This document shows, one piece after another, positions 7,617 to 44,302 of a stretch of 64,000 nt of DNA. Numbering within the stretch: position 1 is the first letter of the stretch; each line of letters starts with the position of its first letter. The DNA comes from Escherichia phage nieznany: sequence record NC_052659.1; one strand, given 5' to 3'. The position numbers and the translations under genes are program-made. The notes beneath the pieces are model-generated. The model searched no databases. It saw only the letters and a program-made list of their open reading frames with translations, and had not been told where the DNA came from.

Positions 7617-7826
7617 TCAATATAGATCTAATGTTAGACTAACAGTTATCCAACAAACAATAGCAGTCCATATAACAAGTAATGATCTACAAACTACATC
7701 CCATTCGAATACATTGTATGTTAACCATTCTCCCATCACAACACAAGAACCTAACCAACATCCGACAATAACTATAATCCAATAAAAGAATCCTACAGTA
7801 GAGTATACAGCAAAAGCTTTTAACAT
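7617..7826 (-). CDS. small membrane protein
   Basis: 69 aa, hydrophobic segments; ATG overlaps upstream reading frame. Confidence 0.4.
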   Translation of the reverse strand: MLKAFAVYSTVGFFYWIIVIVGCWLGSCVVMGEWLTYNVFEWDVVCRSLLVIWTAIVCWITVSLTLDLY

Positions 7827-8239
7827 CTTTCCTCCAGAAGTTGTTCAACAGTTTGACGAGTATGATTGTCCCAGTAAACCTTAGTGAAGTCAAGAGTTCC
7901 TTGTTCGTTTCTCTTAGTTTCGAAGAAGTATCCGCCTTCTCTTTCTACTCTGTCTCTAATGTGCTCTATGAGGTGCTTTTTACAAGATGCTGATAAACAA
8001 TAGTCATACTCCCCACGAAGTAACGCTATAGCTGCAAGTCTGTTATCACCAACTTAAGATATTGTCCAAGAAAGCATACTACCTTCTATACCTAAAGGTG
8101 TTTGTCGAATGGAATATCCACCATGCCGACTGATAGAAATTATGGCAAGTGGTTCTCCTGTTAGAGATCTTCCTAATGCACCTTCTGTTGGACTTCCTTC
8201 AACAATACGTTTGAAAAAAGCTTTGATCTTACCTAACAT
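7820..8239 (-). pseudogene. reading frame interrupted by in-frame TAA (61 codons + TAA + 76 codons); pseudogene or readthrough candidate
   Basis: ORF 8054..8239 and a start-less 76-codon ORF (stop 7820-7822) are in the same frame separated only by TAA at 8054-8056. Confidence 0.35.
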
Positions 8240-8256: not shown

Positions 8257-8391
8257 TTACTTGTTTAAAGTATCTCTTACTTGTTCTGCTTGACGTTTAG
8301 TAATAAAAGTCCCAACCGAAACGTTAAACTCATTGACTACAGAGAACGATCCATCACGGTTCTCACGAATATTAAACAATTTCTTACTCAT
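8257..8391 (-). CDS. small protein (44 aa)
   Basis: ATG preceded by GGAGGAGGTAGAA on minus strand; not in ORF track (<60 aa). Confidence 0.4.
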   Translation of the reverse strand: MSKKLFNIRENRDGSFSVVNEFNVSVGTFITKRQAEQVRDTLNK

Positions 8392-8587
8392 TTCTACCTC
8401 CTCCGATGCTTTGTGCCGTACCATCCCAAGCCATTAGAATATTTGCCAATAGTTCACGAGGCTCTTTAAACCAAACTTCCATTTCATCAAGAATCTCGTC
8501 CGTGTCGTAAGTATAACCTGGAACACCAAGTTCACATTTCTTAAGATAGCTTTCTAACCAGCGGTGATAATTCTTAACCCCATTCAT
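8384..8587 (-). CDS. hypothetical protein
   Basis: 67-aa ORF, start overlaps upstream stop. Confidence 0.35.
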   Translation of the reverse strand: MNGVKNYHRWLESYLKKCELGVPGYTYDTDEILDEMEVWFKEPRELLANILMAWDGTAQSIGGGRNE

Positions 8588-9852: not shown

Positions 9853-10250
9853 TATTCTGCCTCATCATAGAAGAAATCCAACTCTTGTTCCAGTTGTTTA
9901 ACTCGATCCTTAACCCACTGTACACGTTTTTCATTAAACATGCAACGTTTTTCCTTACACTCTTGCTCAAAAGATTTTGCTGTGTTAAATGGGAAAGTTG
10001 TATCTAAGCCAGCGTTTTCAAAACTGGCTAATTGCATACCATAAACAGAATATGCTAAAGAATGATCGGCTCGAAATTCATCACTTATATACATACGTAG
10101 ACCTCGGCATAAGCCAACATCAGCGTAACCACTTTCTCGTGGAAAGAGACGGAGGTGTTCTAACCAATTATTATAGAAATCTAAAAGAATCCTTTTACAC
10201 TTCAAATCAATTGTCATAAAAAGTTTCTCCTTCGTCGAACAAGTTGGCAA
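9852..10250 (-). CDS. hypothetical protein
   Basis: 132-aa ORF, stop/start overlap with neighbours. Confidence 0.5.
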   Translation of the reverse strand: MPTCSTKEKLFMTIDLKCKRILLDFYNNWLEHLRLFPRESGYADVGLCRGLRMYISDEFRADHSLAYSVYGMQLASFENAGLDTTFPFNTAKSFEQECKEKRCMFNEKRVQWVKDRVKQLEQELDFFYDEAE

Positions 10251-10617
10251 GATTGTTCACGGCAATCTGCGTGGAAAGAAGACAACTGTTTGCAGACACA
10301 TAAGCACGAGCTATTTTGTAAACATAGGCTTTCGTATTACAATTGTCCAGGATCGGAAGACTTTCGTCGATAGCATCTATAACACTAAACATCACATCTA
10401 AAACTTTAATGGTGAGTGTTGTATTTGTATCTTCGTAACCTTTTTCAATCCGACCTGAATAGAAAGCATAGTCCTCAACAGTTCGTCGTTTAAACTGCCG
10501 CATAAAATCGGAACCATCTGTAGCAGAATTGAACAAATTTTCAAAAAATACGTCCCATCCGGCAAAAAGGGCTGACAGCATGATTAAGTGATCTACAGAT
10601 TCATTTTCTTGTTTCAT
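10207..10617 (-). CDS. hypothetical protein
   Basis: 136-aa ORF. Confidence 0.5.
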   Translation of the reverse strand: MKQENESVDHLIMLSALFAGWDVFFENLFNSATDGSDFMRQFKRRTVEDYAFYSGRIEKGYEDTNTTLTIKVLDVMFSVIDAIDESLPILDNCNTKAYVYKIARAYVSANSCLLSTQIAVNNLANLFDEGETFYDN

Positions 10618-11914: not shown

Positions 11915-12214
11915 TTAGTTATGTAAACCCAAATGTGCTACAACTTCTCTACGATAAGATAACTGCATAGCAATTTTATAGCCAGGATGAAAACCATTTA
12001 CATCAATGTCATCAAACCAAACCTCAAACGAACCGTGCTTAAGAGTCATTAAGTTGATATACCATTCGATAATATAATGATCGTCAGCAATACCTTCGAT
12101 GTAAAATTCTCGGCAACAGTGAGATAGGTCTTCACTTGTTTCACGTTTCCAGTCCTTGATAGCACCTTTCTCTTTGGCTTCATTCAAAATTTTGATCAGG
12201 TCTTCAACTTGCAT
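11915..12214 (-). CDS. hypothetical protein
   Basis: 99-aa ORF. Confidence 0.45.
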   Translation of the reverse strand: MQVEDLIKILNEAKEKGAIKDWKRETSEDLSHCCREFYIEGIADDHYIIEWYINLMTLKHGSFEVWFDDIDVNGFHPGYKIAMQLSYRREVVAHLGLHN

Positions 12215-12267
12215 ATCTATCTCCTTTGTGGTTAATCTTTATATTTTAAATATTGTACCGTCTTCTA

Positions 12268-12681
12268 TCAAATAGCCTCTTTCTCTAAAACAACTCTTTG
12301 GATCACAACATCTTCAATGTTTGCCAAACAATGACCCAAAGTCAATCCTGCCTTGAAAGGTGCTTGTAGTTTGGACTCGGCTTCTACGCGAATAGAATGT
12401 TCCGCTCCACACATCGTGTAATCTACACGGTAAACGTTTAAACCTAAGAACATAGATTCTTCTTCCTCACAACAAGGATTGAGTTCAGCCCATTCCCAAG
12501 CATCTCCTTCTAAAGCAAATGGAGTGTTGTAATTGAAGAAAGTGCAGCGCGGATACTCCCCGTTGAAAGAATCTTTCAACAAGATATATTTCTTACCGTT
12601 TGCGTGGAAGAGTTCTCCTTTGATAACCTTGCCTACAAGGATATCACTGTTAGTAGAACGGGTGCAGATAAACTTTTTCAT
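12268..12681 (-). CDS. hypothetical protein
   Basis: 137-aa ORF with RBS. Confidence 0.5.
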   Translation of the reverse strand: MKKFICTRSTNSDILVGKVIKGELFHANGKKYILLKDSFNGEYPRCTFFNYNTPFALEGDAWEWAELNPCCEEEESMFLGLNVYRVDYTMCGAEHSIRVEAESKLQAPFKAGLTLGHCLANIEDVVIQRVVLEKEAI

Positions 12682-12743
12682 GATTTTCTCCTCTTTGTTT
12701 TGATGAGATGATTATGACAAAGACAGATCCTTCTGTCAACGAT

Positions 12744-12983
12744 TTATTTCCACTCGCCTTGATGTTCTTTGATCTCGTAAGAGTAGTATTCGAACATGCT
12801 CATACAAACCACACCTGCCATTTCTAAACAAAGAGGTTTGTCATTATAGAAGGCACTTACTGCTCTTCCTGCTTTATGTGCTGCTTCTTCGGAATCACAA
12901 CCGCAAACGTTATGCACCCAAGGATCAGGGCCATCATATTTAAGACGTACAATCCACATGATCATTCTTCCATCTCGAACCAT
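12744..12983 (-). CDS. hypothetical protein
   Basis: 79-aa ORF. Confidence 0.4.
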   Translation of the reverse strand: MVRDGRMIMWIVRLKYDGPDPWVHNVCGCDSEEAAHKAGRAVSAFYNDKPLCLEMAGVVCMSMFEYYSYEIKEHQGEWK

Positions 12984-13189
12984 TCAGGGAACACTTTGTG
13001 GAAGACACGTGTTGTTTCTAAGAGAAATTCCAACTCTTTTTCCAAATCTGCGTTCCAACCGTTTATTTTAACACGGATTGCCAATGCACTTGCACGGCGA
13101 CTCAATTCTTGACAGATTGGATCACGCAGAACTATTGAGTCATAAAACTGACAAACAGCCTCAAGTTCATACCAGTTATAATCCGACAT
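12962..13189 (-). CDS. hypothetical protein
   Basis: 75-aa ORF. Confidence 0.4.
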   Translation of the reverse strand: MSDYNWYELEAVCQFYDSIVLRDPICQELSRRASALAIRVKINGWNADLEKELEFLLETTRVFHKVFPEWFEMEE

Positions 13190-13515
13190 TATTCATCCTC
13201 CTCTGCAATACGATCTCTTACCCAATTAATCCTGTCCACGTTCAGGTGACATACCTTTGCATCTGATTCTAAGACATATGCATCGTAGTTCTCATTGAAA
13301 GGGAGTTCTTGACTCAACCCTTTGTGGTAAAACTGTGCGTGCATTTCATCTGACAAGGTTGTTATAATGGGGTTGTAATTACCTCTGTGCACATAATCGA
13401 ACAAGTTGGCACACAAACCACAATCCCGCCGAAAAGGTTTACCATCAGGAGCACCAACATCAATCCATGCTAGATAAATTTTATAAAACTCCATCAAATC
13501 TTTACTTGTTTTCAT
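13189..13515 (-). CDS. hypothetical protein
   Basis: 108-aa ORF. Confidence 0.45.
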   Translation of the reverse strand: MKTSKDLMEFYKIYLAWIDVGAPDGKPFRRDCGLCANLFDYVHRGNYNPIITTLSDEMHAQFYHKGLSQELPFNENYDAYVLESDAKVCHLNVDRINWVRDRIAEEDE

Positions 13516-13859
13516 TATTTTACCTCGATCACGTTGATAAATACATCTTCACGACAATCTTTATCGTCCCCGTAGATTTGACCTAATCGTACACATGCGT
13601 TAAAGGCGGATTTTGCGGGAATTTGATATTTACGGACAGGACCATTGTCTTTTGTGTAGGAAACCTCAAAGAGACGAATAGTGTCATCCTCAATTACATG
13701 AAACCGACCACAATCCATAATCAAAGAGATACACAGGGTATCCCCTTCTTCGTCTGTAATATAAAACAAACCTGGATTATCTATAACTTGGGAAGCTAGA
13801 TACTGCTTACCCTCTTTAAGGAACTCGACAGAAGACTCTGCACATAAAAGTTTAATCAT
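13515..13859 (-). CDS. hypothetical protein
   Basis: 114-aa ORF. Confidence 0.45.
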   Translation of the reverse strand: MIKLLCAESSVEFLKEGKQYLASQVIDNPGLFYITDEEGDTLCISLIMDCGRFHVIEDDTIRLFEVSYTKDNGPVRKYQIPAKSAFNACVRLGQIYGDDKDCREDVFINVIEVK

Positions 13860-13920
13860 TTTTCTCTCCTTATCTGTGTTGATAATGTATGTATACCATA
13901 CATAAAAGAAATGTCAAAGT

Positions 13921-14121
13921 TTATCGACACAGATAGTTGTAACGATCCGCTTTATCCTCTGCTTCAGCAAAGTCAGCAATCAAGGAAGTTTTGAGTTCTT
14001 CCAACTCTTTCACCCAAGAGTCGTAATCGTTCTGTGTTTCTCCAATAGTTTGGAGAAAACAATCGTCGTAGCCAATAGACATGGCTAACTCGATAATACG
14101 TTCCAGTTTTTCTTCCATCAC
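13921..14121 (-). CDS. hypothetical protein
   Basis: 66-aa ORF. Confidence 0.4.
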   Translation of the reverse strand: MMEEKLERIIELAMSIGYDDCFLQTIGETQNDYDSWVKELEELKTSLIADFAEAEDKADRYNYLCR

Positions 14122-14480
14122 TTCTCTCCTTCTACAGACTTCTGTTTAACATAAAAGTAAGCACCACGAGCAAGATACAAATCATGTTCAATATCGCTCA
14201 CAGGAAAACCATCTGGATTTTTAAAACCGTCTTCTACAGCCAAAATGAGAGATCGTAAACTGATAGCTAACAACTCCATTTGATCTTGTAGTTTTCTATT
14301 TTCTGCATAAAGGTTTTTGCATTTTTGTTCTGCATTTTTCCATTGTTCTAATGCATGATCATAGTTTCGCATAAGGATAGCTTTTTCTTGTTCACGTTTA
14401 AAAGTTTCTTCACAAATGAAACCTGTGCCTAAACCAGTTTCTTCATCTTTGACAAACACTTCAACAAAATCTTTAGACAT
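14118..14480 (-). CDS. hypothetical coiled-coil protein
   Basis: Start moved to ATG at 14480 (AGGAGATAAT RBS), abutting the stop of upstream gene. Confidence 0.45.
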   Translation of the reverse strand: MSKDFVEVFVKDEETGLGTGFICEETFKREQEKAILMRNYDHALEQWKNAEQKCKNLYAENRKLQDQMELLAISLRSLILAVEDGFKNPDGFPVSDIEHDLYLARGAYFYVKQKSVEGEK

Positions 14481-14481
14481 A

Positions 14482-14745
14482 TTATCTCCTATTTGCTTTT
14501 GGATACTCCCAACCTTCTGGGAGATCTTCTTTACACATCCACTCAAAAGGCCAGCGACAATAACTATGCCACTTTCCATCGAGATATAAGCAATCTTCAT
14601 CCACTGGTCCACAAGGATTGATAACTACAACACACCCTTTTGCTCGCCAATATTGAACTATTTCGGGGTAAAAACAAGAAACGTCGGTCCACTCCCAGAT
14701 ACGTTCATCATTCAAACGATATGCTGCTGGCAATGTTTCTTCCAT
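14482..14745 (-). CDS. hypothetical protein
   Basis: 87-aa ORF. Confidence 0.45.
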   Translation of the reverse strand: MEETLPAAYRLNDERIWEWTDVSCFYPEIVQYWRAKGCVVVINPCGPVDEDCLYLDGKWHSYCRWPFEWMCKEDLPEGWEYPKANRR

Positions 14746-17813: not shown

Positions 17814-18047
17814 TTATAACGCTTCATAGATTGAGTAGATCCGGTTTGCCAGGTCATTACGAAAGCGGAATTTTTCATCACGTTTGATCATCAGATCCTT
17901 AAAACCATATTCTTTCAATGCTTCATTAACTTTATGGCGGCAAACGTTCATATTATCCTGCGCGTCACCAATAAACTTATTACTGTGATGCATTGCTTTG
18001 ATCTCTTCCTCTAATACCAGGGCAACTACTGCGATCATCTTTTTCAT
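17814..18047 (-). CDS. small protein
   Basis: 77-aa ORF; GGAAGAGGA RBS; GC hairpin in 5' leader. Confidence 0.45.
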   Translation of the reverse strand: MKKMIAVVALVLEEEIKAMHHSNKFIGDAQDNMNVCRHKVNEALKEYGFKDLMIKRDEKFRFRNDLANRIYSIYEAL

Positions 18048-18101
18048 GCGTCTATCCTCTTCCTATTGCGTTTAATGGGGCGTTACCGCCCCGCTTATGG
18101 T

Positions 18102-18338
18102 TTATTGATTGATGTTATGATGAAAGTTATTTTCTTCAATAGCTTTTAAAATAAAAGCCGTGATCGCTTTCGTGTCTACTTGTTCGAACGTATCAGAATA
18201 AGCCCAATAATAATCATCCCCTACTTTCGGCGGGTAAACCTGGACAAGGAGATCGCCACCTGGTTGATCTATAAGCTCAACATGCAAGCCGGATGATTCA
18301 GCGGTTTTAACGGCGTTTAATACTGTTGCAATACTCAT
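18102..18338 (-). CDS. small protein
   Basis: 78-aa ORF; GAAAGGAAAAG RBS; GC hairpin in leader. Confidence 0.45.
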   Translation of the reverse strand: MSIATVLNAVKTAESSGLHVELIDQPGGDLLVQVYPPKVGDDYYWAYSDTFEQVDTKAITAFILKAIEENNFHHNINQ

Positions 18339-18382
18339 AATCTTTTCCTTTCTGATGTGGGGCGTTGCCGCCCCTTTGTTGA

Positions 18383-18682
18383 TTAGATCGCTGTTTCCAG
18401 TAGTTCGGCTAACGTCTTACCGCCTGATAGTTGGTCTAACGTTTGCTCTTCTGGCAAGAAATTAGCTGATATTAAACCGACTTGATTCCCTTTGTGCCAG
18501 TTAGCCTGGCGGATGATTCCATCCTTTAAGGATTTTACCGCCATTGTGCAACCGTCGCCAAATGATTCATTTTTATGGTCCATCACTTCATAAGCGCCCA
18601 GTTTGCTGCTGTTAGGCACCATTAACGCGAACACATCACCAACAACCAGTTTTTCTACGGTAACAATAGCGATAGTTTCCAT
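18383..18682 (-). CDS. small protein
   Basis: 99-aa ORF downstream of promoter-hairpin module. Confidence 0.45.
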   Translation of the reverse strand: METIAIVTVEKLVVGDVFALMVPNSSKLGAYEVMDHKNESFGDGCTMAVKSLKDGIIRQANWHKGNQVGLISANFLPEEQTLDQLSGGKTLAELLETAI

Positions 18683-18700
18683 TTTATTTTCCTCATTATC

Positions 18701-18757
18701 GGCGGCACCATTGCCGCCCTACAAGATACATATTACCAGACTAAGCCGACTTGTCAA
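18701..18757 (-). promoter_or_regulatory. promoter (TTGACA..TAATAT) plus 5' leader stem-loop GGCGGCA-CCAT-TGCCGCC
   Basis: -35 complement at 18752-18757, -10 complement at 18730-18735, hairpin 18701-18718, then RBS. Confidence 0.5.
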
Positions 18758-18758
18758 A

Positions 18759-18869
18759 CTATTTTTTCTTTTTCTTTGCTTCCAACCGTCTAAGGTTACG
18801 GCTGGACTTATTACGCAAGGCGCTCAGATCGTCGTACCCTTTCCATGCTTGCATATCTTTCGGATTCAT
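18759..18869 (-). CDS. micro-protein (36 aa, basic C-terminus)
   Basis: ATG preceded by AAGGGGG; below ORF-track length cutoff. Confidence 0.3.
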   Translation of the reverse strand: MNPKDMQAWKGYDDLSALRNKSSRNLRRLEAKKKKK

Positions 18870-18878
18870 GTTACCCCC

Positions 18879-19040
18879 TTACTTGTTAGCCGGATCATAT
18901 ACCAGGACCGCGCCACTTGCTTTCACGCTTTCCGCTTCATAGTTGCGCAAATCGTTTTCTGTAAGATTGAGCGCGATCACTTCCTCGATCTCGATACCAG
19001 TGGCAAGGGCGATCTCTTTGATAATGTCTGCTATTTTCAT
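18879..19040 (-). CDS. small protein
   Basis: Internal ATG at 19040 chosen so as not to overlap neighbour. Confidence 0.35.
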   Translation of the reverse strand: MKIADIIKEIALATGIEIEEVIALNLTENDLRNYEAESVKASGAVLVYDPANK

Positions 19041-32619: not shown

Positions 32620-32674
32620 CTACCTCTCTTGTTAATGTTCATACATGATACCTGAAAATAATTTCAGATCAAGT

Positions 32675-32702
32675 ATTGACATACTTTTTAATCTTGTTAA
32701 GA
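32675..32702 (+). promoter_or_regulatory. sigma70-like promoter TTGACA-N16-TAAGAT for rightward block
   Basis: Located in divergent intergenic region 32620-32733. Confidence 0.5.
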
Positions 32703-32733
32703 TCAACTCCTACCAAACAAAAGGAGAAAACAA

Positions 32734-33177
32734 ATGCAAAACATCCAAAACATCAAACTGACTTGGCCCGAAGCTAAAGAAGCAATGAAGGAAGGTAGAC
32801 GTGTTGAGCACCGCCATTTTTGTGGTGGCGAATGGTTTGAGATGCGAGATGGTGTTATTCTCGACGAACAAGGTTATAACATGGAAACTTGGTTCAGAGG
32901 GGAAGCTTGGCAGGAAGAGGGTTGGTCTGTAATTGAAAAAGAAGACAGTAAGGAAGAAGGCGTGTTGTCTAATGTAGAACGCGAGATGAGGGAAACAAAG
33001 ATACCTGCTTTGGATTTTGTATACCTGGAAGAACTTGTGGCAGCATCTTTTGTAGCAGGAAACCTTTGGAATACACCTGTTAGCCGACTGGAGAACCAAA
33101 ATAACCCGTCTACTCGTAATCACAAGCTTTATAAGGGTAAAGGCCACAACAAATTAAAGAAAGGAAAGAAGAAATGA
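32734..33177 (+). CDS. DUF2829 / Tad2-like domain protein with Lys-rich tail (tentative)
   Basis: N-terminal W.EAKEAMKEGRRV..RHFCGGEWFEM..G..DEQGY...W resembles DUF2829 pattern; recalled similarity only. Confidence 0.35.
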   Translation: MQNIQNIKLTWPEAKEAMKEGRRVEHRHFCGGEWFEMRDGVILDEQGYNMETWFRGEAWQEEGWSVIEKEDSKEEGVLSNVEREMRETKIPALDFVYLEELVAASFVAGNLWNTPVSRLENQNNPSTRNHKLYKGKGHNKLKKGKKK

Positions 33178-40235: not shown

Positions 40236-41613
40236 TAAATTTGCCCGTAAACAGGAAGTTGCTGAAGCAGCACGTCGCGCTGGTGTGTATGACAAATTGT
40301 GTGAAGGTATTGTGAAGGTGTATGGCTGGGAGGGAGAAGATGATCCAACCTGTTCAGGTGATTTTGCAATGAACGATATGACCTTCCCATATATTTCCTA
40401 CAATGCCTCCACTGGTGAAATAAACGGTGTAACCAGCACCAGTGTTGATCGTTATCCAGATGCAGAACAAACCACAGGAGGTTACATGTTAGATCTGATT
40501 CTTAAGAAATCAGGGTTATTGGGAATCGAAGACGTTTTCGTAGATGCAGATAGTTTATCATTAGGAGATGTTGTTAAACTACTGGTAGACTTTAGATTTG
40601 CAACAGGTAAAAGCTTCTGGAAGCCAGAAGATGCTGAACGTTTGAAGACAATCGATCCAAGTATGTATGAACTGCCACAATATAAAGATAAACAATTCCG
40701 CAAGGTTATCTTCTTTGATCGTCAAGCAGGCTTAGATGCAATGCATATTGAAGTTGGGGATTTACCACGCCCACACTCTGCTGCTACTGGTGATCGCGGC
40801 CTTGTAGAAGTCACGGCTCAAGAATTTAAAAATATGTTTGCTGCGAAATACGATGAAGCTGCGCCTGTGCCAAGTATTGAGGAGCAAGAGGAAGAACAGT
40901 TTGTAGCGGAAGATACTGCATTTGAATATCTGCCGAACACAGGTGTTATGCCTTCAGAAGATTTCGTGCAGGTTCGCTTCAACAATGGTCAAACAGATGT
41001 TGCTAAGGGAACAGTATTCACTTGGAATATCGACAATCTGGAAGAGTGGGCGATTAAAGAATACTTCATTCTCCCGCGCACGGCAAAATACAACTATAAT
41101 AATGGTGGACACCGCCCTTGTGGTGGTCACGTAGAAGTTCTCTTTCGTGACGGAACTACGGATAGTGGATCGGCTACGCATTTCACTTGGGGTCATGTTG
41201 GATATGATCGGGATATTGTTGGTTGGCTTCCAACTAACAACCCTAAACCACGTTACCGTAAGCCTCGTAAGAAGCCTCCGGTAGGTAAGAAGAGTGTCGT
41301 TCGTGTCCTCTACACTACGCAACAGACCTACACATTTAAAAATGTGGTAGACGTGCAAGTAACCGAGGAGCGAGTTTATATCCAATATGATCGTGAAGTT
41401 ACAGAGGGTATCAAAGAATCGGTTACTACCGAAATTGAAAATAAGCTTGTTATGGCAATCATTGTGGAAGAAAGTAAAGTAGAGAACGGTAAAGCCTATA
41501 CTGTTCGTGATAGCTTCTTGCGTAATATCGATGGAACCTGGGATTACAATGGACACGATGGGACCGCTGTGAAGAACGGTAAGATCATGGGAAGACAATT
41601 CCTCTCCAAATGA
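40228..41613 (+). CDS. hypothetical protein (461 aa)
   Basis: ATG 40228 after AGGAGG; long ORF with no recognised motif. Confidence 0.5.
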   Translation: MINKFARKQEVAEAARRAGVYDKLCEGIVKVYGWEGEDDPTCSGDFAMNDMTFPYISYNASTGEINGVTSTSVDRYPDAEQTTGGYMLDLILKKSGLLGIEDVFVDADSLSLGDVVKLLVDFRFATGKSFWKPEDAERLKTIDPSMYELPQYKDKQFRKVIFFDRQAGLDAMHIEVGDLPRPHSAATGDRGLVEVTAQEFKNMFAAKYDEAAPVPSIEEQEEEQFVAEDTAFEYLPNTGVMPSEDFVQVRFNNGQTDVAKGTVFTWNIDNLEEWAIKEYFILPRTAKYNYNNGGHRPCGGHVEVLFRDGTTDSGSATHFTWGHVGYDRDIVGWLPTNNPKPRYRKPRKKPPVGKKSVVRVLYTTQQTYTFKNVVDVQVTEERVYIQYDREVTEGIKESVTTEIENKLVMAIIVEESKVENGKAYTVRDSFLRNIDGTWDYNGHDGTAVKNGKIMGRQFLSK

Positions 41614-41623
41614 TAAAACTTAA

Positions 41624-41648
41624 AGGCGCACTTTGCGCCTTTTTTGAT
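41624..41648 (+). terminator. rho-independent terminator
   Basis: AGGCGCACTTTGCGCCT hairpin followed by TTTTTTG. Confidence 0.5.
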
Positions 41649-41716
41649 TTCCCTCAAAGCTTTTTTCGGTTGGAAGAGGTAGAATAATAGTTCTACTCAC
41701 AAAATAAGGATTAATA

Positions 41717-42589
41717 ATGAAAGATTTGTACCAAGATGTTTTTTCTTTTTTAGATCGCACTTCAGAAACATACACTAGAGAGAATGCAAACAAACCTTCC
41801 CACCTCGTTAACACGCATAGGGATCTCTTGGCGGGGATTTTAAGCAAACATATGGCAATGACACAGATACTGCCAAAAAACTTGTCAGAATGGCATACAG
41901 AAGGTTTTGGACATATTCACGACTTGGATTATCTGCTCTCTCCTCTTACAAACTGTTGTCTTGTTAATTATCAAGATATGTTAGAGAATGGTTTTAAGAT
42001 CGGTGCTGCACAGATAGAAAAACCAAAATCTATTGGAGTAGCTACTACCGTGCTAACTCAAATCATCCAAGCTGTTGCCTCCAGTCAGTATGGAGGTCAG
42101 ACGTGTGCGCACATTGATAAAGGTCTTAGTCCTTATGTTGAAGCTAGTTTCCTTAAAAACATGGAGATAACCAAACGTCGCTACGGTTGTTATGCAAGGA
42201 AAGAAGCCCTAGAAATGACCGAACAAGATGTATATGACGCTATGCAAACTCTTTTGTATCAGGTTAACACTTTAATGAGTGTTAATGGACAATCTCCTTT
42301 TATTACAATCAGTATGGGTCTGGATACCTCTGTTTTTGGCAGAATGATCACAGCTAACTATCTTAAAGTGCATAGTAACGGTCTAGGTAAAGATCATGTA
42401 ACGCCTGTATTCCCTAAAGTTATTTTCTTTTTACAAGAAGGTGTTAACATGAAACCTAGTGATCCTAACTACGACCTTAAGCAACAAGCTTTGGCATGTT
42501 GTGCTGATCGTATTTATCCAGATTTTATTTCTGTTCCTTTGAACAAAGAAGTTACGGGGTCAGCAGATGGCACTGTTACGAGTATGGGT
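41717..42589 (+). CDS. nrdD: anaerobic ribonucleoside-triphosphate reductase NrdD, exon 1
   Basis: N-terminal half of class III RNR; frame ends in stop shortly after proposed 5' splice site (..TSMG). Confidence 0.65.
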
Positions 42590-43360
42590 AAACTATAACT
42601 GCTCATGTAAAATCTGCCTAAACGGGGGAACTCTCAACAGAGACAATCCCGTGCTAAACGTAACAGAACTCCCAACACAGAAGAAGGGGGGTACTGATAT
42701 GAGAAAACAAATTCGTGATTTTGAAGGGTATGAAATTGACGAGCTTGGAAATGTTTATTGTACCAGGTATAAGGATGAAAGAATCCTTCGCTCGTGGGAA
42801 GAAATAAACACAGGATACCAACTTGTCAGAATACGTAAAAACAAGAAAACTGTTTGCTTTCGGGTGCACAGACTTGTAGCTGAAGCGTTTTTACCCAATC
42901 CAGACAATTTACCTTATGTGAAGCATAAAGGTGACAATAGGAAAGACAACAGTGTATACAATCTTGAGTGGGGATCTTGTCCAGACAACACGCAAGAGGG
43001 TTACGATAATAACTGTTATGCTTTCTACACAAGGTGTCACAGTGTAAAAGCTACTCATAAGGCTACTGGTGAAGTTTTTTACTTTAAAAGTCTGAGATGT
43101 TGTGCTGACGCTTTAGGGTTGGACAGAAAAAGAATATCTGCAATCTTAAAGCAAGGAGCACCAAATAATTATGATTATGAGTTCTGTTACGAAATGCCTA
43201 ACGACTAGCTGTGATGAATGTAGCAGCGTAGGGTGTAAGCCTATGACACCCCAAATGGTAGACATGCTTTAAGCATGAAGATATAGTCTGATCTGCATGG
43301 TGACATGCAGCAGCACGTAATGGTGCGGGAGTGGCCTTGCGAGCCACTTTGAACATAATG
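42590..43360 (+). mobile_element. group I intron (putative) interrupting nrdD, carrying HNH homing endonuclease ORF
   Basis: Exon 1 ends with T; intron ends with G before TGT(Cys); splicing restores frame giving ..TSMG-CRSFLSYY.. and about 604-aa NrdD. Confidence 0.5.
42699..43208 (+). CDS. HNH homing endonuclease (intron-encoded)
   Basis: GYEIDELGNVY ... VHRLVAEAF ... KHKGDNRKDNSVYNLEW HNH family pattern; own RBS. Confidence 0.6.
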   Translation: MRKQIRDFEGYEIDELGNVYCTRYKDERILRSWEEINTGYQLVRIRKNKKTVCFRVHRLVAEAFLPNPDNLPYVKHKGDNRKDNSVYNLEWGSCPDNTQEGYDNNCYAFYTRCHSVKATHKATGEVFYFKSLRCCADALGLDRKRISAILKQGAPNNYDYEFCYEMPND

Positions 43361-44302
43361 TGTAGAAGTTTCTTGTCATACTATGCAACAGAGCAAGGAG
43401 AAAAATATGATGGACGATTCAACCTTGGAGTAGTTTCTATCAACTTGCCTCTGATTGCTGCGGAAGCGAGAAGTAAAGGAGAATCTTTCACCGATCTTCT
43501 TAATAAACATATGGAGATAGCCTACGATGCTCACATGCTACGTGTAAACCGTATCAGACATACCAAAGCATCTGAAAACCCTATTCTTTTCATGGAAGGG
43601 GCTTTAGCGCGTTTAAATGCCAACGATGAAATTGGTGCTTTGTTTGAAGGTGGTTATGCTTCTATTAGTATTGGTTATGTAGGTCTTGCCGAAGCTTTGG
43701 AAATCCTTTATCCAGAGGAAAAAGATAAAAAGGAACTAGGTAAAAACATTCTGCAACATATGAAAGATGTGTGTGCTGTGTTTAAAGAACGATCTAAGTT
43801 GGCATTTAGTCTTTATGGAACTCCAGCAGAATCCTTGTGCTATAAATTTGCAACAGCTTTAAATGAAAAATATCCAGGTCTGGTAGAAAGAGACTATCTT
43901 ACTAATTCTTTTCATCAACCTGTATGGTTGGTAACAAATCCTTTTGAAAAATGGGATTATGAAGCAGGTTTTGCACAGATTAGCAATGGTGGTAACATAA
44001 GTTATGTCGAAACACCAAACTTAAAGAATAACTTAGAAGCTTTGGAGACTTTAGTAGACTACGCTTATGAACATATTCACTATTTTGGTATTAATCAGCC
44101 CGTGGATCAATGCTTTAAGTGTGGTTTTCATGGAGAATTTAAGGCAACGGCTAAAGGGTTTGAGTGTCCTAATTGTGGCAACCATGAAGAAGAAACTATT
44201 TCTGTAGTTAGACGTGTATCAGGGTATCTTTCTGCCCCTAATTCACGGCCTTATAACAAAGGTAAAATGCAGGAAGTTTTGCAAAGGGAGAAACATCTTT
44301 GA
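43361..44302 (+). CDS. nrdD: anaerobic ribonucleoside-triphosphate reductase NrdD, exon 2
   Basis: C-terminal Zn ribbon CFKCG..CPNCG and glycyl-radical motif RRVSGYL. Confidence 0.65.
   Translation, partial: CRSFLSYYATEQGEKYDGRFNLGVVSINLPLIAAEARSKGESFTDLLNKHMEIAYDAHMLRVNRIRHTKASENPILFMEGALARLNANDEIGALFEGGYASISIGYVGLAEALEILYPEEKDKKELGKNILQHMKDVCAVFKERSKLAFSLYGTPAESLCYKFATALNEKYPGLVERDYLTNSFHQPVWLVTNPFEKWDYEAGFAQISNGGNISYVETPNLKNNLEALETLVDYAYEHIHYFGINQPVDQCFKCGFHGEFKATAKGFECPNCGNHEEETISVVRRVSGYLSAPNSRPYNKGKMQEVLQREKHL

Follow-up and report, generated by a model that had tools for sequence, protein, structure and literature searches.

A probable strain-private ochre mutation in a conserved accessory gene of a phAPEC8-like Phapecoctavirus

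Phages of the Stephanstirmvirinae encode a family of hypothetical accessory proteins represented by phAPEC8_0057 and phi92 gp027. Two kinds of described system bear on an in-frame stop codon within such a gene. In known phage readthrough, as at the UGA that precedes the A1 coat extension of Q-beta, the frame remains open for a long extension past the in-frame stop, the leaky stop (UGA or UAG) is conserved and both products are functional. In the classical ochre (UAA) mutants among the conditional lethals of T4 and lambda, a single-base change of a Gln codon from CAA to UAA causes premature termination. Here we analyze a 64-kb stretch of phage DNA (hereafter the window) in which a gene of the phAPEC8_0057 family is divided by one TAA. 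We conclude that this is probably a recent ochre nonsense mutation, private to the strain, in a conserved accessory gene of a Phapecoctavirus, and as such an event of an ordinary, already known kind. Roughly apportioned, most of our confidence goes to a real mutation, a clearly smaller part to a base-call error and very little to everything else.

On the minus strand of the window, the gene starts with an ATG at 8239–8237, ahead of which lies the Shine-Dalgarno-like sequence AAGGGGGA (8250–8243). According to both the ORF list and the translation, the frame opened by this ATG runs for 61 sense codons to a TAA at 8056–8054, the N-terminal remnant ORF with its premature stop thus spanning 8054–8239. 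Past this TAA the frame stays open for another 77 sense codons (231 nt) to a second TAA at 7822–7820, giving 61 + 77 = 138 sense codons in total. This stranded C-terminal part (7820–8053 on the minus strand, including the native TAA) reads VGDNRLAAIALL...QLLEERC, and its full translation up to the native stop is VGDNRLAAIALLRGEYDYCLSASCKKHLIEHIRDRVEREGGYFFETKRNEQGTLDFTKVYWDNHTRQTVEQLLEERC. The initial annotation had described a single in-frame TAA splitting a 138-codon frame at 7820–8239, and the sequence, the ORF list and the translation all bear this out, as does the ATGTTAA overlap for its further claim that the final stop at 7820–7822 overlaps the ATG of the next gene. It had also counted 76 sense codons without a start in the downstream part; the lack of a start holds, and the count is corrected to 77.

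No in-frame ATG, GTG or TTG occurs across the 77 codons after the premature TAA. The only near-cognate codons there are ATA at codons 71 and 91, ATT at codon 94 and CTG at codon 135, and no Shine-Dalgarno sequence was found before any of the four. A promoter and terminator scan returned nothing beyond the shuffled expectation inside the gene and so provides no evidence for an internal promoter serving the downstream half, which, to judge by these features, probably cannot be expressed independently. When the 231-nt stretch was shuffled, only 65 of 20,000 shuffles were free of in-frame stops, and the other five frames of the same stretch contain 1–7 stops each (24 in all). The open stretch exceeds chance expectation, and it is homology that decides the point.

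The window region matches 63 Phapecoctavirus records at 95–99.8% identity, and the genome can be assigned on its sequence to Phapecoctavirus, as a phAPEC8-like E. coli myovirus of the Stephanstirmvirinae. A tblastn search with the two halves joined found 130 phage records, and in 128 of them a single location accounts for at least 80% of the query; the joined halves gave 99–100% coverage of the homologues. By identity the records fall into two sets, 63 at 95% or above and 67 below 60%; Justusliebigvirus/phi92 and the phiWec179/PsgM04F group belong to the second. A single 420-nt CDS is annotated exactly at the window's 7820–8239 as phAPEC8_0057, ZCKP1 gp267, EF1-1 gp51, REC_00116 and ESCO5_00228, and likewise in DE16, whereas the more distant phi92 gp027, PsgM04F and phiWec179 genes are single CDSs of 136–144 aa. 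Synteny is preserved as well: in phAPEC8, EF1-1, REC, ESCO5 and DE16 the small CDSs on either side are the same and lie at unchanged offsets.

Joined, the two pieces form the orthologue of phAPEC8_0057/phi92 gp027 (PHROG 14510), being 97% identical to the former and 42% to the latter. The allele of the closest relative, DIJ07P1, which, like that of EF1-1, equals the window gene apart from codon 62, matches the PHROG 14510 profile over positions 1–139 of 139 (E 1.3e-72), and alignment to intact orthologues places the N-terminal remnant at residues 1–61. In all homologues examined, which range from 99.8% identity in DNA to 42% in protein, the gene is single and intact, at 134–144 aa. An uninterrupted frame marks a functional member of PHROG 14510, and the window copy lacks one; it is a disrupted allele of the family and not an intact member. 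We found no match for the phAPEC8_0057/phi92 gp027 family in Pfam, among PDB sequences or among PDB folds, so that the label "potential transcription regulator" attached to the phi92 protein is unsupported. A literature search, made in part with a loose query, returned nothing on this gene or on stop codons in Phapecoctavirus genes. Among the database records, Campylobacter phage B15, Acinetobacter phage vB_AbaM_ABPW7 and Dompiswa phage TSP7_1 are at least 98% identical here to E. coli Phapecoctavirus, and homologues of the disrupted gene are encoded by Campylobacter phage A145 (41% protein identity) and Pseudomonas phage PsgM04F (58%). The host labels of these five records look doubtful, and contamination or mislabelling may explain them.

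The initial annotation had named, as what would speak against a split gene, homologues with two separate genes and an independent start for the downstream part; the comparison returned single genes throughout. Two genuine genes in the window, or translation of the downstream part alone by reinitiation or from a non-canonical start, seem to us scarcely credible. A search of 5.8 billion proteins yielded six clusters only, all of them full length except P0003, an 85-aa call that begins at an internal Met55 and might be taken as a precedent for a separate downstream product, as might the in-frame ATA, ATT and CTG codons past the stop. Met55, however, lies upstream of the window's stop, and P0003, a call on a 1.8-kb contig, itself continues through ISQVGDNR. 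Nor do the near-cognate codons come with a Shine-Dalgarno sequence, in a stretch devoid of ATG, GTG and TTG, and every annotated homologue is a single CDS. The PHROG profile, the predicted fold and its structural neighbour likewise treat the 139 residues as one unit.

That fold was modelled with AlphaFold2 from a five-sequence family alignment as one compact alpha/beta unit, with helices at residues 2–13, 48–61, 67–74, 84–100 and 125–138 and strands at 18–24, 30–36, 42–46, 104–110 and 116–122. Codon 62 directly follows the helix 48–61. Confidence in the model is moderate, since the best of the five models reached a pLDDT of 81 and a pTM of 0.69 and the other four were much weaker. The sole significant structural neighbour, found with Foldseek in BFVD (E 7.8e-9, TM 0.73), is a full-length uncharacterised protein of 139 aa from Pantoea phage AAS21. 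Identity to the distant homologues is 49–69% in the C-terminal half and 31–44% in the N-terminal half, and the downstream half shows 8 synonymous and 3 non-synonymous variants among Phapecoctavirus alleles, the stop aside. The C-terminal half is the more conserved of the two and is under purifying selection in the relatives. Truncation at codon 62 would deprive a single fold of its more constrained part, and the remnant of 61 residues most likely has no function.

The premature TAA (8054–8056, minus strand) differs from the ancestral codon by one base. In the DNA alignment codon 62 is CAA in phAPEC8 and ZCKP1 and TAA in the window, and in the protein alignment, which extends down to 42% identity, Gln occupies this position in phi92, PsgM04F, phiWec179 and P0002–P0006. 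Gln62 sits within the motif I[ST]Q[VL]GDNR, which is invariant among the homologues examined. The presence of CAA or Gln both in the Phapecoctavirus alleles and in distant homologues indicates that the stop is derived, by one C-to-T transition. On the plus strand this is a change from G to A at 8056, where the five nearest relatives (DIJ07P1, EF1-1, REC, ESCO5 and DE16) have G and the window has A. Over 1,301 nt compared with DIJ07P1 the window differs at just 2 positions, 8056 among them. DIJ07P1 and EF1-1 match the window base for base in the 234 nt that follow the stop, so the downstream half has not decayed since the stop arose. The same C-to-T change makes the palindrome CTTAAG, which AflII-type enzymes recognize, out of CTCAAG at 8053–8058, probably by coincidence.

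We searched for the TAA allele elsewhere in three ways. In a BLAST search with a 160-nt query that had the variant as its first base, all 60 of the listed records (of 63) aligned only from base 2 or 3; the remaining three are covered solely by the second search, which misses alleles with other variants nearby. For the second search the variant was placed at the centre of a 31-mer, so that any 28-nt megablast word must contain the variant base. The TAA-allele 31-mer had no match among 50,697 phage records, and the CAA control matched 54 records at 100%. With the base wild-carded, the sole exact-pattern match was the metagenome contig OBRO01000001.1 (150.7 kb), with CAA at this codon. An exact-pattern scan of IMG/VR around codon 62 gave no match of any kind and is therefore uninformative on the allele; genome_contigs and the E. 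coli genome and plasmid collections contained no copy of the gene, and the 61-aa product is absent from an index of 153 billion genes. The TAA allele is private to the window's genome. Of the explanations offered by the initial annotation, a recent nonsense mutation giving rise to a pseudogene is the one that the comparison supports, the TAA being one C-to-T step away from an invariant CAA, confined to one genome and followed by an undecayed downstream half.

A lone private substitution at an invariant codon, in a gene that is intact in every relative and with flanks identical to those of the nearest relatives, is also how an isolated base-call error would look. Were the plus-strand A at 8056 a wrong consensus base, the true codon would be CAA and the gene intact, and we regard such a sequencing or assembly error as possible but unlikely. 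In high-coverage phage assemblies a substitution error in the consensus is a rare event, and real mutations are most often transitions such as C to T. Against DIJ07P1, a distinct strain to which the window is about 98% identical over 59 kb, the 1,124 substitutions comprise 810 transitions and 314 transversions, and the change at codon 62 is itself a transition. The site lies outside any homopolymer and carries neither a GATC nor a CCWGG (Dam/Dcm) methylation motif.

Assembly quality was gauged by a reciprocal screen, in which all ORFs of at least 50 aa in the window and in DIJ07P1 were checked for in-frame stops in the other genome. Over the 59 kb, the disrupted gene, about 99% identical, was the only ORF of at least 100 aa broken in mid-gene; the other matches were shifts of the start site or the C-terminal end, or short, probably spurious ORFs. 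No scatter of isolated homopolymer indels was seen, and most 1-nt indels relative to DIJ07P1 compensate one another in pairs within divergent patches. By these measures the assembly gives no impression of being error-prone, and a real mutation is favoured over a base-call error. Two ORFs on the minus strand, at 10198–10617 and 32635–33147, differ from DIJ07P1 in C-terminal length, as end shifts and not mid-gene breaks: in one the ORF ends 4 codons earlier in the window than in DIJ07P1, and in the other a stop falls at position 146 of 168 in the alignment, some 30 nt downstream from a 9-nt insertion at approximately 32746. Three segments, at approximately 12060–14498, 17842–18932 and 42590–43368, have no megablast counterpart in DIJ07P1; the first holds several small hypothetical ORFs, and such segments resemble the mosaic modules of accessory genes that phages of this kind typically have.

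The initial annotation had also allowed for programmed readthrough. Under this explanation the TAA would sometimes be decoded, because of its context or with an ochre suppressor tRNA encoded by the phage, and products of 61 and 139 aa would result. The downstream frame is indeed wholly open and protein-like, and Phapecoctaviruses have tRNA genes of their own, among them a tRNA-Gln(UUG) whose anticodon would need one base changed to become an ochre suppressor; in the present phage the tRNA region lies beyond the 64-kb window. The open frame is nevertheless explained by its identity to the intact gene of the relatives, and the stop occurs in no homologue, close or distant, so that there has been no selection to read through it. 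Of the three stops, UAA leaks least in E. coli. TAA is moreover the phage's most used terminator, ending 44 of the 84 window ORFs of at least 100 aa, and TAA-G, the context of the premature stop, ends 9 of these.

ARAGORN found no tRNA in the 64-kb window, the equivalent of the relatives' tRNA cluster lying outside it. Across the whole genome of DIJ07P1 a cluster of 10 tRNA genes lies at 40689–42703; none of the 10 is a suppressor, and the tRNA-Gln has the normal UUG anticodon, which reads CAA, the codon mutated in the window. With the stop found in no homologue, TAA serving as a standard terminator and no suppressor tRNA found, we set programmed readthrough or suppression aside as highly improbable. 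Reassignment of the stop codon was also considered and rejected: TAA is not avoided (44 of 84 ORFs), and just one mid-gene stop occurs in the near-identical long ORFs over 59 kb. The use of TAA as a normal terminator indicates the standard code.

The gene that follows, at 7617–7826 on the minus strand, encodes a 69-aa hydrophobic protein that matches PHROG 24123 over its full length (E 1.2e-47). Its ATG is at 7826–7824, with a GGAGG of its own at 7835–7831, and the relatives annotate the same overlapping arrangement. Loss of translational coupling could mildly affect its expression, and with 231 nt of mRNA presumably left untranslated it should still be translated, perhaps less efficiently, because its own GGAGG is retained. 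The disrupted gene lies within a run of small same-strand genes in the ORF list, and such runs of small genes are typically accessory. The genes flanking it match PHROG 24123 and PHROG 27860. For the listed 55-aa ORF at 8257–8424 (minus strand), the start is probably an internal ATG at 8391 (MSKKLF..., 44 aa) preceded by GGAGGTAG; PHROG 27860 covers only residues 12–55 of this ORF, and relatives annotate a 135-nt CDS there.

Taken together, the data suggest the following course for a real nonsense mutation. The C-to-T transition would have turned the CAA of the invariant Gln62 into TAA, and ribosomes starting at ATG 8239 would terminate after 61 residues. The C-terminal 77 codons, which have neither a start nor a ribosome-binding site of their own, would then go unmade. 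The product would be at most a 61-residue fragment missing the more conserved half, and the allele effectively null. The phage was evidently propagated and sequenced with this allele, which suggests that a PHROG 14510-type gene is dispensable under the propagation conditions; such dispensability is common for small accessory genes in clusters of this kind. That the knockout is both real and adaptive, through a host defence that senses the protein or through toxicity of the protein on the propagation host, strikes us as improbable, and less likely still is the variant in which an ochre suppressor derived from the phage's own tRNA-Gln(UUG), encoded outside the window, inserts Gln and restores the protein; neither reading gains support from the observations.

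A loss-of-function allele that is confined to one strain and affects a small phage gene carries little biological weight. For annotation, we propose that 7820–8239 be labelled a disrupted phAPEC8_0057 orthologue in place of a 61-aa gene followed by 231 nt of "intergenic" sequence. If the mutation is confirmed in the reads, the isolate would be a natural knockout, the PHROG 14510 protein would be dispensable for plaque growth on the isolation host, and the isolate would be a modestly useful reagent for studying the PHROG 14510 gene.

Compared with the systems described at the outset, the window gene shares position, flanking genes, length and sequence with the phAPEC8_0057/phi92 gp027 family and differs in having TAA for CAA at codon 62, so that only residues 1–61 are encoded ahead of the stop. 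With the Q-beta A1 extension it has in common an in-frame stop followed by a long open frame, but its stop is a UAA, occurs in one genome only and falls within a single fold. With the classical ochre mutants of T4 and lambda it shares the single-base change from Gln CAA to UAA, premature termination, possible polarity on a coupled downstream gene and the expectation that a Gln-inserting ochre suppressor would restore the wild-type protein. Unlike those mutants, the window's stop did not come from a selection for conditional lethals; it lies, in a natural isolate, in an accessory gene that appears to be dispensable, and no suppressor is known to be involved.
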